A stretch of 64,000 nucleotides of DNA from a virus (taxonomy: Duplodnaviria; Heunggongvirae; Uroviricota; Caudoviricetes): IMG/VR virus record IMGVR_UViG_3300036715_001196, positions 1-64,000 of that record. One strand, 5' to 3'. The notes beneath the pieces are model-generated. The model worked only from the letters and a program-made list of their open reading frames with translations. It was not told the DNA's origin and ran no database searches. Shown here piece after piece: positions 4,283 through 63,677 of this stretch (the first letter of the stretch is position 1; each line of letters begins with the position of its first letter). A program made the translations under genes and the position numbers.

Positions 4283-4702
4283 ATGCCTAATCCATGGGAT
4301 CACTTACCAAATGCTAAACACATTGATGCTATAATTGCATCAGTTAAAGCACACCTAAAAGAATGGGGTGCGGCAAGGGGTGCGGCAAGGGGTGCGGAGC
4401 GGGGTGAGGTGTGGGATGCGGTAAGGGATGCGGCGTGGGATGCGGCGTGGGATGCGGCATGGGATGCGGCGAGGGATGCGGCGAGGGATGGGGCGTGGGA
4501 AGCGGCCTGTAGTGCGGCATATTATGCGGCAAGGGATGCAATCATTGCCCTTATTGCATATGATGATTGCGCATATATGCTCGACTCAGATCCAAGCGAG
4601 TTAGAAATAATTGCTAAATTCGGTGACGAGAGAGCAATACTTTTATTAGCTGCATGTAAGGTATTTGCAGATATTAAGATACATAAACCAGTTATTGCTT
4701 GA
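4283..4702 (+). CDS. HEAT-like repeat protein, hypervariable family A member 1
   Basis: Internal ATG ([28 protein letters not shown]). Centre made of AARGAA/AAWDAA/AARDAA hexapeptide repeats. C-term [47 protein letters not shown]. Stop TGA lies inside the -35 of the next promoter. Confidence 0.75.
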   Translation: MPNPWDHLPNAKHIDAIIASVKAHLKEWGAARGAARGAERGEVWDAVRDAAWDAAWDAAWDAARDAARDGAWEAACSAAYYAARDAIIALIAYDDCAYMLDSDPSELEIIAKFGDERAILLLAACKVFADIKIHKPVIA

Positions 4703-4727
4703 CAAATGATTCCAGCTATCATATTAT
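4699..4727 (+). promoter_or_regulatory. sigma70-type promoter of the family-A cassette (TTGACA-N17-TATTAT), followed by an (ATA)n microsatellite
   Basis: TTGACAAATGATTCCAGCTATCATATTAT. The -35 overlaps the stop of the upstream family-A gene. The -10 is followed by about 19 ATA/TAA repeats before the conserved UTR and RBS. Confidence 0.6.
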
Positions 4728-4787
4728 TATAATAATAATAATAATAATAATAATAATAATAATAATAATAATAATTACCACACATTA
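4725..4787. repeat. (ATA/TAA)n trinucleotide microsatellite, about 19-20 units, between the promoter -10 and the RBS
   Basis: Perfect ATAATAATA... tract. The same position in other cassettes reads ATAATTACTACACATTAAACAAACAGGAG. Confidence 0.9.
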
Positions 4788-4810
4788 AACAAACACCGTA
4801 GGAGTACAAA

Positions 4811-5200
4811 ATGTCTAATCCATGGGATCACTTACCAAATGCGAAACACATTGATGCATTAATTGCATCAGTTAAAGCACACCCAGAAGAATGGGTTGCG
4901 GCAAGGTATGCGGAGCGGGGTGAGGCGTGGGATGAGGCGTGGGGTGCGGCGTGGGATGCGGCGTGGAATGCGGCGGGGGATGCAGCATATTATGCGGCAA
5001 GGTGTGCGGCGTGGGGTGCAGCCTGGGATGCGGCGTGGGATGCAATCATTGCCCTTATCGCGTATGATGATTGCGCATATATGCTCGACTCAGATCCAAG
5101 CGAGTTAGAAATAATTGCTAAATTCGGTAATGAGAGAGCAATACTTTTATTAGCTGCATGTAATGCATTTTCGATCATTAAGGAAAAAGAACATGTCTAA
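4811..5200 (+). CDS. HEAT-like repeat protein, family A member 2
   Basis: [34 protein letters not shown] repeats, conserved C-term. RBS AGGAGTACAAAATG. Confidence 0.8.
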   Translation: MSNPWDHLPNAKHIDALIASVKAHPEEWVAARYAERGEAWDEAWGAAWDAAWNAAGDAAYYAARCAAWGAAWDAAWDAIIALIAYDDCAYMLDSDPSELEIIAKFGNERAILLLAACNAFSIIKEKEHV

Positions 5201-5723
5201 TAATATAATCACAATTAAAGATTTTATGGCCTGTGTTAATTATTGTATTACTGATAGTTCAGAATACTGTTGGTCATGTTATGGCAATAATGCAAGGTAT
5301 ATGGATTATTGGAACGAAAAACACGGTGACGATAGTGTATCAATGTCTATAATTTTTGATACAAATACTCAAATTGTATATCAGATGGAAGTATGGGATA
5401 GTTCAAGTCATCGAGAATATCGTTGGCTTAATCCTGATTATAAAAAGGTATTTCTAGATGAAGCAAATTCTCGTAACATTAAGCCTAACGAAACAATTGA
5501 TGGGCGAAAGTTTATTGACTTAGATGTTAGGGTTGATATGTTAGAAAAGGCTTCTGCAATCTTTGCCGGTAGAGAATATGATACTCGTGTATCTGTTGAT
5601 ATAGAATTAGACGACAACACTATGTTAGCATTAATGACAATGGCACACGAAGCTGATATGACATTAAATAATTTTGTTACTTACATCATCGAACAGGAAA
5701 TAATAAAACAACCAACGAAATAG
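5193..5723 (+). CDS. hypothetical protein
   Basis: ATG with RBS AAGGAAAAAGAAC. Overlaps the family-A stop. 176 aa. Confidence 0.5.
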   Translation: MSNNIITIKDFMACVNYCITDSSEYCWSCYGNNARYMDYWNEKHGDDSVSMSIIFDTNTQIVYQMEVWDSSSHREYRWLNPDYKKVFLDEANSRNIKPNETIDGRKFIDLDVRVDMLEKASAIFAGREYDTRVSVDIELDDNTMLALMTMAHEADMTLNNFVTYIIEQEIIKQPTK

Positions 5724-5810
5724 CAAACGAACTACCATATAATATTATCAAAGGCGCTATAATAACGCTGTGGTACAAAATTTTTATTAACATTACTAAA
5801 AGGAAATACA

Positions 5811-6173
5811 ATGTCTTCACATCAAACGATTAATACCAAGGTTGCTGAACAACTTGCAGCAATTGCACCGCAGGTAGCGGAAAATATTATTAACCATTTG
5901 GTTACTAAAGAATTGACCCGCCGTTCGGACGCGATTATTCAGGCAATAGCTACGTCTGAAAAACTTTCCAAAGATCTAGCCAAATTGAAACCTGATAATG
6001 TATTGTACAATGAAGATGGCACAGTAGCATCTTCGACATACACTAAGGCAAAGTTGGACGAAAAATCTAAGATTACAACCCAGATCAAAAAAATTGAAGA
6101 CGCAATCGAAAAAGCACTAGCGAACAACGACTATAGCTTGTTGTTCAACTTAGCAAAACCGCAAGAAGCGTAA
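5811..6173 (+). CDS. hypothetical protein (coiled-coil rich)
   Basis: 120-aa ORF preceded by AAAGGAAATACAATG. Confidence 0.5.
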   Translation: MSSHQTINTKVAEQLAAIAPQVAENIINHLVTKELTRRSDAIIQAIATSEKLSKDLAKLKPDNVLYNEDGTVASSTYTKAKLDEKSKITTQIKKIEDAIEKALANNDYSLLFNLAKPQEA

Positions 6174-6174
6174 T

Positions 6175-6426
6175 ATGAACTTAACTTACATCCGTGCTGA
6201 AGTTGATCGGCGCGTAGCAGAACAAATGCCTGTTGTCTTGTTCGAACGAAGCATTTTACTTCATAAAAAAGTCGGCTCAACAAATGGGTGTAAGTGTTCG
6301 TATTGTTGTTTAAAACGTGCATCAACGTCTGCGATCGCAAATGCAGGTTATCACAGACGTGATTCTGTAAAAAGAACATATATGTTTCTGTTGTCTCAAG
6401 AAATGAAAAAGTATCAAGGGGAATAA
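6175..6426 (+). CDS. hypothetical protein
   Basis: 83-aa ORF immediately after the upstream stop. Confidence 0.4.
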   Translation: MNLTYIRAEVDRRVAEQMPVVLFERSILLHKKVGSTNGCKCSYCCLKRASTSAIANAGYHRRDSVKRTYMFLLSQEMKKYQGE

Positions 6427-61997: not shown

Positions 61998-62026
61998 TAC
62001 TACACATTAAACAAACAGGAGTTGGT

Positions 62027-62368
62027 ATGTCTTATACTAAACAAAACCGCAAAACTATTCACTCACAGTTGGTTGCTGCAAAGAAACATTTGTGGGCTGG
62101 TGTTGGTAAAAGGTATCTAACTAGATATATTTGCGTGGCTGTAGTTGACGGGGTGCTTGCATCGCGTAGTGATCTGGACTGGAGCATGACTACGGGTATG
62201 ATTGAAAGTCGGTTAGGAAAGTGCATCGATGGACATATTAGTGCCAGAACTGTAAGAGGATGGCTCATTGAGTATGCTAAAATCCCAGTAGCTGACATAA
62301 CAGATGAATCATTGCAAACATTTCGACATGAATGGCTTGATGAATTGATTAAGGAGTTTTCAAAGTGA
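62027..62368 (+). CDS. family D protein, module copy 3
   Basis: Near-identical N-terminus to 61480. Ends LQTFRHEWLDELIKEFSK. Confidence 0.55.
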   Translation: MSYTKQNRKTIHSQLVAAKKHLWAGVGKRYLTRYICVAVVDGVLASRSDLDWSMTTGMIESRLGKCIDGHISARTVRGWLIEYAKIPVADITDESLQTFRHEWLDELIKEFSK

Positions 62369-62778
62369 CTATAGTAGTACCTAAATATGTTTGCAACCGT
62401 GAACATATCTTAAGGCTCATTGAGCATTCTCGCAAGAACCCATTGTTGTGGAAACAGCTATCAGACGAGCGCAGTCATACTCACTTCTTTGATGCTAGAG
62501 ATAAAACTATTCTTAGATACGAAGATCAACTATCTTGGGATGGAAAAATTCTACTAGACATAAGCAATATTATTACAACTAATGCATATACTGTTTTGGA
62601 TTGTATAGTATGCTTATTTGCATATGATGATTGTGCATATATGCTTGATTCACATCCGGGTGAGCTTGAAATACTTGCTAAGTTTGATAATCCATATGCT
62701 TGCTTGTTATACAATGCATGTAGAATACTTCATGGTCTAGAACCTATGTTTCAATGTAGTGTTTCAGACAATGATTGA
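62365..62778 (+). CDS. divergent family A member 17, module copy 3
   Basis: C-term [55 protein letters not shown]. Confidence 0.6.
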   Translation: MTIVVPKYVCNREHILRLIEHSRKNPLLWKQLSDERSHTHFFDARDKTILRYEDQLSWDGKILLDISNIITTNAYTVLDCIVCLFAYDDCAYMLDSHPGELEILAKFDNPYACLLYNACRILHGLEPMFQCSVSDND

Positions 62779-62803
62779 CATGTGATTCCATTTGTCGTAT
62801 AAT
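62775..62803 (+). promoter_or_regulatory. family-A-type promoter cassette variant
   Basis: TTGACATGTGATTCCATTTGTCGTATAAT + ACTACATACACAAACAAAACAGGAGTTGGATATG. Confidence 0.6.
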
Positions 62804-62829
62804 TACTACATACACAAACAAAACAGGAG

Positions 62830-63252
62830 TTGGATATGAGTACTTCCTCAACAATCGGTTACGCAGATAAGAGTGGTAATATCTTTTCAATACGCTGTAA
62901 CTGGGGTGGAAATATCTATGAAGCTAGTAAGTTGCTTAATACTCACTACACCCAACGTGATAAGGTCGTACAATTAGTTTCATTGGGTAACTTATGTGTA
63001 CTCAAAGCTCGTATAGAGGCGTACAACCCTACAAAGCATAGCTATACTACACCCGAGCAAGGGGTTTGCGTGTTCTATGGGCGTGATAGAGGTGAACCAT
63101 GCCATGAAACAAATATGCATCGTAATGTTGAAACTTTTCTTGAAGACTCCCCAGATGATACATACACGTTCTTATTCGATAGCGGGCACTGGTATGTATC
63201 AGACGGTGGTGCTTTTGTATTGTTGGCTGAATTACTTTTAACATACAACTAA
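62830..63252 (+). CDS. hypothetical protein
   Basis: 140-aa ORF driven by the cassette promoter. Confidence 0.45.
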   Translation: MDMSTSSTIGYADKSGNIFSIRCNWGGNIYEASKLLNTHYTQRDKVVQLVSLGNLCVLKARIEAYNPTKHSYTTPEQGVCVFYGRDRGEPCHETNMHRNVETFLEDSPDDTYTFLFDSGHWYVSDGGAFVLLAELLLTYN

Positions 63253-63253
63253 T

Positions 63254-63652
63254 ATGGATAAGATCAAAGACATTGCGAAAGCTACTCGCATTTGGGCTGA
63301 AGACTATGCTCATACACATAATATGGCAGCAGACTTATGCGGTATGTGTGCTATAGCCTCGGCAGAACTCTTTACTAATTTGATTTTTGCAGGATTTAAG
63401 CCCGAGATAAGAATTTCAAACAGTTTTAGTGGCAATCATGTTTACTGTGTGGTAGATGATCATGTTGTTGATGTTACTGCAACACAATTTCATCCTTTTG
63501 AAGAAGAAACAGTTGTTATACTTCATGAGTGTGAAGCTGCTGCATATAATTTCTATGTTGATGATATTCACTATATTGAAAGTATAAAGGCACTCGTTAA
63601 ATATCAAAAGAAGTATGATTGGCCGAAGAAACAACGGGTATCTATTGCTTGA
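63254..63652 (+). CDS. hypothetical protein
   Basis: 132-aa ORF, 1 nt after the upstream stop. Confidence 0.45.
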   Translation: MDKIKDIAKATRIWAEDYAHTHNMAADLCGMCAIASAELFTNLIFAGFKPEIRISNSFSGNHVYCVVDDHVVDVTATQFHPFEEETVVILHECEAAAYNFYVDDIHYIESIKALVKYQKKYDWPKKQRVSIA

Positions 63653-63677
63653 CAAATGATCCCATCTGTCATATAAT
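63649..63677 (+). promoter_or_regulatory. family-A cassette promoter
   Basis: TTGACAAATGATCCCATCTGTCATATAAT + ACTACACATTAAACAAACAGGGGTACAAAATG. Confidence 0.65.

Follow-up and report, generated by a model that had tools for sequence, protein, structure and literature searches.

What is a promoter block of about 60 nt doing when it recurs, with little change, ahead of gene after gene in a single phage genome? The question is raised by a 64-kb window (the whole stretch of DNA that was analysed, 64,000 nt of IMG/VR record IMGVR_UViG_3300036715_001196, from the Caudoviricetes), which holds a multigene family, here called family A, and a repeated block, here called the cassette, that joins the end of one gene to the start of the next. 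The original prediction, made from the letters alone, took the cassette for a portable expression module and a recombination substrate. This reading appears largely right, but its scope was overstated. As judged from sequence, the cassette is probably a PeSL-like repeated regulatory element, comparable to the PeSLs of T4-type phages, lying in what is predicted to be an early, accessory ("hyperplastic") region of a jumbo phage that is uncultured and related to PA5oct.

Taken literally, the predicted pattern (15 nt, N6, then TCATATAAT) has no match in the window, even when 3 mismatches are allowed. With a gap of N5, which gives a 17-bp spacer, there are nine matches at up to 3 mismatches, all on the + strand, against an expectation of 0.00 from shuffled sequences. 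The repeated cassette is thus real and far beyond chance. The same junctions were found in independent assemblies from five sibling samples and are therefore not assembly artefacts. Each copy is labelled by c and the position of its -35:

c4699, 4699..4813, + strand: runs from the -35 to the ATG of family-A gene 4811-5200; the -10 is TATTAT; the upstream gene, 4283-4702, ends PVIA-stop with its TGA within TTGACA.
4729-4775: insert in c4699, an (ATA)15.7 microsatellite of ~47-48 nt between -10 and leader.
c21451, 21451..21512, + strand: the -35 is TTAACA and the stop codon TAA; precedes family-A gene 21510-21929.
c43484, 43484..43545, + strand: precedes family-A gene 43543-44013; 8-bp hairpin over -35 and spacer, -7.2 kcal/mol.
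c44010, 44010..44071, + strand: type-2 leader TACTACATACAAACACCGCAGGAG; precedes family-A gene 44069-44464.
c44461, 44461..44528, + strand: two added AAT units past the -10; precedes family-A gene 44526-45014.
c61421, 61421..61482, + strand: precedes family-D gene 61480-61821; 9-bp hairpin, -9.6 kcal/mol.
c61969, 61969..62029, + strand: precedes family-D gene 62027-62368; hairpin of -10 kcal/mol; an A-like fragment of 53 amino acids lies upstream.
c62775, 62775..62838, + strand: the most diverged copy, with 3 mismatches; precedes ORFan 62836-63252 (phrog_1987, function unknown).
c63649, 63649..63710, + strand: precedes a family-A gene beginning at 63708; upstream lies gene 63254-63652, which has no relation to family A yet ends ...TCTATTGCTTGA.

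The array that begins at c63649 runs past the end of the window with at least 3 further copies.

The predicted architecture is borne out: TTGACA, a 17-bp spacer, TATAAT, a leader and AGGAG follow one another up to an ATG. Both hexamers and the spacing are perfect in six of the nine copies, and the other three depart from this by a single hexamer mismatch or by a spacer that has diverged. When all nine copies are aligned with their flanks, the common block reaches from about 6 nt before TTGACA to the ATG, a cassette of ~60 nt. Within it, GATTCC in the spacer is retained by eight copies, the leader after the -10 is A/C-rich and ~23 nt long, the -10 lies 29-36 nt from the ATG in eight copies, and AGGAG is placed 6-8 nt before the ATG. 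TACTACA likely puts the transcription start site ~7 nt past the -10. The microsatellite of c4699 stretches the leader from ~30 to 83 nt, and two sibling-sample contigs begin directly past this (ATA)n repeat. The two extra AAT units of c44461 (44490-44495) sit at the same spot, where the junction of TATAAT with TAC resembles a triplet-slippage hotspot.

The upstream gene had been said to end typically in VIA-stop, its TGA being the TGA of the -35 hexamer. The overlap of stop codon and -35 holds for eight of the nine copies, but the ending is not always VIA or TGA: five genes end PVIA-stop, one unrelated open reading frame (ORF) ends SIA-stop and two A-like genes end SDND-stop. A second TGA lies 7 nt after the stop codon within the -35, and it is this one, in AATGATT (61977-61979), that closes the fragment upstream of c61969. 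Two promoters outside the cassette set, at 20660 and 53254, also overlap an upstream stop with their -35, so the overlap is a general compaction habit and not a property of the cassette. Nor is it how family-A genes are generally joined. Most relatives in IMG/VR are coupled by ATGA start/stop overlaps with no promoter, and the junction with its stop codon inside the -35 is therefore specific to this lineage. The conserved unit of ~300 bp that had been proposed around it (C-terminus, promoter, 5' untranslated region and N-terminus) stands for five junctions between family-A genes.

The cassette had further been placed before most family-A genes. Only 6 of ~18 carry it (4811, 21510, 43543, 44069, 44526 and 63708). 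These are second or later members of tandem arrays, and the sequence ahead of each array's first gene is unrelated. Such a distribution could arise if the cassette were a passive scar of duplication, copied along with tandem family-A genes and not itself portable, its conservation reflecting recent duplication or gene conversion. Consistent with a scar, five of the nine copies are junctions between family-A genes within tandem arrays, the array-first genes 4283, 20987 and 43044 are without a cassette, and the flanking coding ends are conserved like the core (83-96%). In addition, the crossover mapped below falls within coding sequence, and family-D genes are always paired with A-like genes, so that the "foreign" contexts still neighbour family A.

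What speaks against a scar is how the cassette compares with its surroundings. We scored pairwise identity in three segments, the core and its 90-nt flanks, leaving out c4699, in which the ~48-nt insert depresses the score. Core identity among the remaining eight copies is 72-97%, whereas the 90-nt flanks of non-matching contexts have an identity of 0.41-0.56, where random 90-mers give 0.50 +/- 0.03. In four copies the core is 77-97% identical while one flank or both are no more alike than random sequence. For example, only 2 of 62 positions separate c43484 (family A to family A) from c61421 (A-like to family D), an identity of 97% between unrelated flanks. At c63649, the boundary of homology lies 6-9 nt upstream of the -35, inside the unrelated gene. 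Four contexts are found upstream (family-A genes ending PVIA-stop, A-like genes ending SDND-stop, an internally deleted A-like fragment and the unrelated ORF 63254-63652) and three downstream (family A, family D twice and ORFan 62836). Foreign cargo appears again in two related contigs described below, a 16.3-kb lake-metagenome contig (L026) and a 40.5-kb contig. In L026, unrelated genes without a family-A neighbour are partly seen behind the cassette, at 436, 10587 and 11861. We therefore regard a mere scar as unlikely. As originally proposed, the cassette is a discrete unit, apart from the coding ends, and it does precede unrelated genes: family-D genes 61480 and 62027 and one ORFan, whose start is probably the ATG at 62836 rather than 62830.

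Variant forms of the cassette had been assigned to the ORFs at 49290, 52391 and 55046. These have separate near-consensus promoters with unrelated spacers, and only the one at 49235 has the cassette leader, TACTACATACAAACA. Two incomplete copies can be described as follows, and a further partial copy lies at 48354:

49235..49292, + strand: half-cassette; unrelated -35 and spacer (TTGACC...), identical leader past the -10, TATAATTACTACATACAAACA; before ORF 49290-50432.
47579..47646, + strand: degenerate copy; TTGACA-N17-TACACT with the ribosome-binding-site block of the cassette, TAGGAGTACAAAATG; before family-A gene 47644-48048.

The nine copies thus come with two leader types, a chimera of both in c4699, and partial copies at 49235, 47579 and 48354, which indicates exchange inside the element.

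Exchange can also be seen between populations. One sibling-sample contig (L092) matches 43264-43460 at 100% identity and resumes, again at 100%, from 43969, so that one 526-bp unit is missing. The exchange interval (43264..43986, + strand) spans both copies of a 16-nt identity, GCATTTGCAGCTATTA, ~526 bp apart. The crossover lies in GCATTTGCAGCTATTA, within the conserved block that encodes the C-terminus and ~40 nt ahead of the -35, and an identity of 16 nt is too short for the contig to be a k-mer assembly collapse. A second contig (L013), 99.6% identical upstream, is without gene 4283 and c4699, its junction falling exactly at the ATG. Sibling populations therefore differ by one gene-plus-cassette unit, and these variants point to the conserved ~300-bp block between variable cores as a live recombination substrate in which exchange is ongoing. 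This part of the predicted behaviour stands, whereas active mobility of the cassette is unsupported. A transposon, a miniature inverted-repeat transposable element (MITE) or an integron was set aside, with no dedicated search: all copies have one orientation, their alignment contains no terminal inverted repeats or target duplications, and neither indel is the insertion of a lone cassette.

How would the cassette be transcribed? The non-family promoters of perfect consensus that had been listed across the window were confirmed, two of them displaced by 1 nt (33645 and 41544). In total, TTGACA-N17-TATAAT occurs perfectly at 15 sites, all on the + strand, against 0.05 expected, and near-consensus sigma70 promoters (up to 1 mismatch) number 38 on the + strand and 1 on the - strand. 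Within the cassette, the -35 (TGACAAAT) can pair, imperfectly, with the 3' end of the spacer (ATTTGTCA). This hairpin, which was not part of the original prediction, is present in six of the nine copies, at -5.7 to -10 kcal/mol, and is significant against shuffled spacers; the other three copies have none. Spacer hairpins at p<=0.05 are also found in 6 of 29 non-cassette promoters (~1.5 expected), with sequences that are all different:

11117-11146: promoter with spacer hairpin, -13.8 kcal/mol.
13341-13369: promoter with spacer hairpin.
19212-19240: promoter with spacer hairpin.
34856-34884: promoter with spacer hairpin.
36995-37023: promoter with spacer hairpin.
50584-50612: promoter with spacer hairpin.

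The palindrome raises the possibility of a co-regulated set of genes, in which the spacer (AATGATTCC...TGTCA, partly palindromic as TGACAAAT-N6-ATTTGTCA) would be an operator at which a DNA-binding protein, of phage or host, switches this set of promoters together; its conservation would then be due to protein binding and not to recombination. The spacers of sigma70 promoters normally vary freely, yet GATTCC is kept in all but one copy, and a palindrome over both hexamers, significant in two-thirds of the copies, is a classic repressor layout. In addition, ATGATTC occurs 12 times in a non-coding array at 59.6-60.3 kb, although this shared 7-mer is weak evidence. However, no part of the cassette varies more than the 3' arm of the palindrome, three copies are without the palindrome, and leader and ribosome-binding site are equally conserved, though no operator would constrain them. 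Hairpins of unrelated sequence in other promoters suggest structure or descent rather than one operator. A regulon of this kind is improbable, if compatible with the PeSL-like explanation. As the principal account, a single operator was rejected, the 3' arm being least conserved and unrelated hairpins occurring elsewhere.

Alternatively, the element might not be a promoter for host RNA polymerase at all. It could serve a phage-modified polymerase or sigma factor, or function chiefly at the RNA level once transcripts have read through it, for instance as a 3' hairpin, a site of processing or a signal for translational reinitiation. We found no + strand intrinsic terminators between cassettes at 42-46 kb or 61-64 kb, which makes long read-through transcripts likely; most copies have the hairpin; and a string resembling the MotA box of phage T4, TGCTTGA, overlaps the -35. 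In T4 middle promoters, the MotA box (TGCTTtA) lies ~12 bp upstream of the -10 and replaces the -35. Here TGCTTGA ends 19 nt from the -10, so that the spacing is off, and a full -35 is retained; a MotA-dependent middle promoter was rejected on these grounds. Against such readings stand the perfect match to the sigma70 consensus at optimal spacing and the 38:1 strand bias in gene direction. An Rfam scan assigned no RNA family to the cassette, only a tRNA being matched. The reliance of the relative PA5oct on host polymerase also counts against these readings, which we consider very improbable.

The link to PA5oct comes from protein matches, among which PA5oct-like Pseudomonas jumbo phages are the closest cultured relatives, at 43-49% amino-acid identity. 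No DNA similarity between the window and PA5oct was found, and a near-DNA search of 50,697 phage records with the array at 43-45.5 kb gave no match. The window is without capsid or replication core genes that would allow finer placement. By its predicted proteins, the window is from an uncultured jumbo phage distantly related to PA5oct. PA5oct is reported to be rifampicin-sensitive and to need the RNA polymerase of its host (Lood et al. 2020, PMC7318152), and 32 promoters with TTGAC and TATAATA motifs lie at start sites from RNA-seq (PMC7318152). By likeness to PA5oct, host sigma70-type transcription of the cassettes is plausible.

We thus favour the PeSL-like explanation, under which host RNA polymerase would start at every copy, so that every small gene, or pair of genes, would have a strong transcript to itself and a uniform, efficient start of translation. 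Without intrinsic terminators between copies, transcripts would also read through, and those arriving from upstream may be attenuated or stabilised by the hairpin, as has been shown for the stem-loop of one PeSL. Tandem duplication of family-A units would carry the junction of conserved C-terminus, cassette and conserved N-terminus along, and homologous exchange within the ~300-bp block would expand or contract the arrays and put the cassette before unrelated ORFans.

The PeSLs of T4-type phages provide the closest precedent. A PeSL is a repeated composite that runs from the upstream stop through a consensus sigma70 promoter and stem-loop to a Shine-Dalgarno sequence and ATG (PMC2839356; PMC4122927), and PeSLs cluster among ORFans in hyperplastic regions, where they give rise to indels and mini-circles (Arbiol et al. 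2010, PMC2839356; Comeau et al. 2014, PMC4122927). Their stem-loop lies most often between the -35 and -10 or over the -10, and their stems are G/C-rich, one having been demonstrated to terminate transcription (PMC2839356). Like PeSLs, the cassette spans upstream stop, sigma70 promoter, Shine-Dalgarno sequence and ATG, with a stem-loop in most copies. Its copies are concentrated in the plastic regions that small ORFans occupy in a large lytic phage and are similar enough to provide patches of homology, and near relatives differ by indels of adjacent gene units. The differences are equally clear. The phage is not T4-type, being nearest to PA5oct-like phages; the -35 is not preceded by an AT-rich tract, coding sequence instead abutting the hexamer (...CCAGTTATTGC followed directly by TTGACA); the hairpin is weak, A/T-rich and missing in a third of the copies; and the cassette is bound to one expanding multigene family, not to unrelated ORFans only. 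The promoters of PA5oct, as the available part of that report presents them, are a motif class and not a repeated cassette of ~60 nt with common spacer and leader (PMC7318152). The morons of lambdoid phages, accessory genes with their own promoter (Hendrix et al. 2000, as discussed in PMC2839356), are alike in that accessory genes bring their own promoter. They differ in that each is a lone gene, closed by a terminator of its own and not flanked by a conserved repeat, whereas the cassette is without a terminator and a conserved flank defines it. By this comparison the cassette appears to work like a PeSL, being neither a strict member of the T4 PeSLs nor a new kind of element: its anatomy and genomic behaviour place it with the PeSL kind, for which the precedent is already published.

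Several observations weigh against this assignment. Three copies lack a hairpin, and where present it is A/U-rich with a poor U-tail, which makes a role as terminator doubtful. Neither of the two population variants is a clean cassette-to-cassette exchange: the L092 crossover precedes the cassette by 40 nt and falls within the coding block, and the L013 junction at the ATG has only 3 nt of common sequence. Finally, part of the conservation, that of the hexamers and TACTACA, is a general strong-promoter style and need not mean common descent. Set apart from the cassette, the window also has terminator-hairpin-then-promoter composites at 50553-50612 and 50911-50987 (e.g. AAACCCGCTTCGGCGGGTTT TCTTTTG, then TTGACA...), in which a stem-loop lies upstream of the -35, a layout described for PeSLs.

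Is the cassette found in other genomes? The exact cassette has 0 matches in IMG/VR and 0 in 185,579 bacterial and archaeal genomes, and a degenerate scan of JGI metagenomes returned only 7 single matches to a different promoter (TTGACAAATAATCCC...), similar in style but another element. A scan for TTGACA-N17-TATAATTACTACAYA picked out 41 IMG/VR contigs, including ones of 345-371 kb, with unrelated spacers. The hexamers with TACTACA are, by these sequences, a general strong-promoter style, and it is the common spacer and leader that define the cassette. A sister cassette is present in 12 copies in L026 (GC content 44.5%), with the form ...ACTATTGC TTGAC(G/A)TGGATC(C/T)AGTGTAGCTGTATAATAGCTAC ATACACA...GG(G)A..ACAAAATG. 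The family-A genes of this contig end KTIA-stop, with the TGA within the -35. A 10-bp hairpin with the -10 at its apex, at -9 to -13 kcal/mol, is found in 12 of 12 copies. The sister cassette precedes family-A genes as well as unrelated ones, at least 5 of the latter; the -10 has been lost from one copy, and one half-copy breaks within the -10. Three related copies are found in the 40.5-kb contig, from the same sample series, one of them between a family-A gene ending KTIA-stop and a non-family gene. At 436-1134, 8925-9197 and 11293-11787 of L026, the cassette lies before proteins of ~23-residue NPSEEVQLAAVRQNGYAIEYIK repeats, a second repeat-protein family that is absent from the window.

These results would widen the range of PeSL-type cassettes to an uncultured, PA5oct-related lineage outside the T4-type phages, and suggest that re-used promoter-leader blocks may be a general route by which large lytic phages express and reshuffle accessory genes. 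The cassette and its L026 sister are compact predicted strong parts for transcription and ribosome binding, and they also mark plastic regions of the genome. The cassette further flags a large, unannotated and hypervariable family, with more than 1,100 metagenomic homologues, whose copy number changes in natural populations. Family A comprises ~18 paralogues of 120-160 amino acids, in which the N- and C-termini are conserved and the core between them is hypervariable. This core consists of AA-x-x tetrapeptide repeats, which appear in the DNA as 12-nt repeats of 6-20 units. Its genes lie at:

4283-5200, family A.
20987-21929, family A.
38215-39265, family A.
43044-45845, family A.
47644-48936, family A.
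51875-53257, family A.
61044-61424, family A.
62365-62778, family A.
63708 to the end of the window, family A.

At E<=0.001 the family has 1,140 homologues, nearly all metagenomic and none with a Pfam domain. Searches for its function gave no Pfam match, PHROGs matches that are all of unknown function and three unnamed NCBI homologues. An AlphaFold model predicts a long helical hairpin (pLDDT 72, pTM 0.38), with no PDB match at E<=0.001. A look-up of gene 44069-44464 in other assemblies gave no record. The cargo behind the cassettes likewise consists of ORFans, with no Pfam match and only PHROGs of unknown function, among which the nine copies and the partial ones are grouped.

One could go further and propose that a family-A gene and its cassette form one self-propagating unit, with arrays that expand and contract like a gene accordion. 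The fusion of the ...IA-stop end to the promoter of the next gene is kept in two divergent phages, those of the window and of L026, and tandem duplicates would therefore be expressed automatically. This proposal is tentative and, on present evidence, doubtful. If true, it would describe a built-in device for amplifying and diversifying an arsenal for counter-defence or host range in an uncultured jumbo-phage clade.

Some neighbouring features complete the picture. At 60637-62778, a module of two genes is repeated three times; the first gene belongs to family D, the second is A-like, and the stop of one overlaps the start of the other. The middle A-like gene (61818-61979) is an internal-deletion remnant, 31 nt shorter still in the sibling contig L017. 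Next to these modules, 59660-60580 is a non-coding region of ~900 bp made of interleaved direct repeats of 31-74 bp: ~18 modules with CACAGT...ATGATTC, together with a 50-bp repeat in 2.4 copies and a 48-bp repeat in 2.1 copies. It looks like an iteron array and might be an origin or a regulatory region; it is 312 bp shorter in L017. The 7-mer ATGATTC, common to this array and the cassette spacer, may be a coincidence.

Elsewhere in the window, genes resembling DUF7487 homing endonucleases lie at 15677-17227 (- strand) and 22377-23864 (+ strand). The second, an HNH homing endonuclease, is followed by a DUF2201 metallopeptidase/VWA gene at 23916-25097, an order that is the same in PA5oct (~44-49% amino-acid identity). 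A MoxR-like AAA ATPase is encoded at 17375-18478. ARAGORN predicts a tRNA-Arg(TCT) at 35028-35102 and an 88-nt tRNA-Met(CAT) at 35947-36034, of which only the first reaches the Rfam tRNA threshold; PA5oct likewise has Arg(TCT) and Met(CAT) tRNAs. Finally, a gene-poor stretch at 46972-47132 holds a 75-bp tandem repeat in 2.1 copies that are 89% identical.

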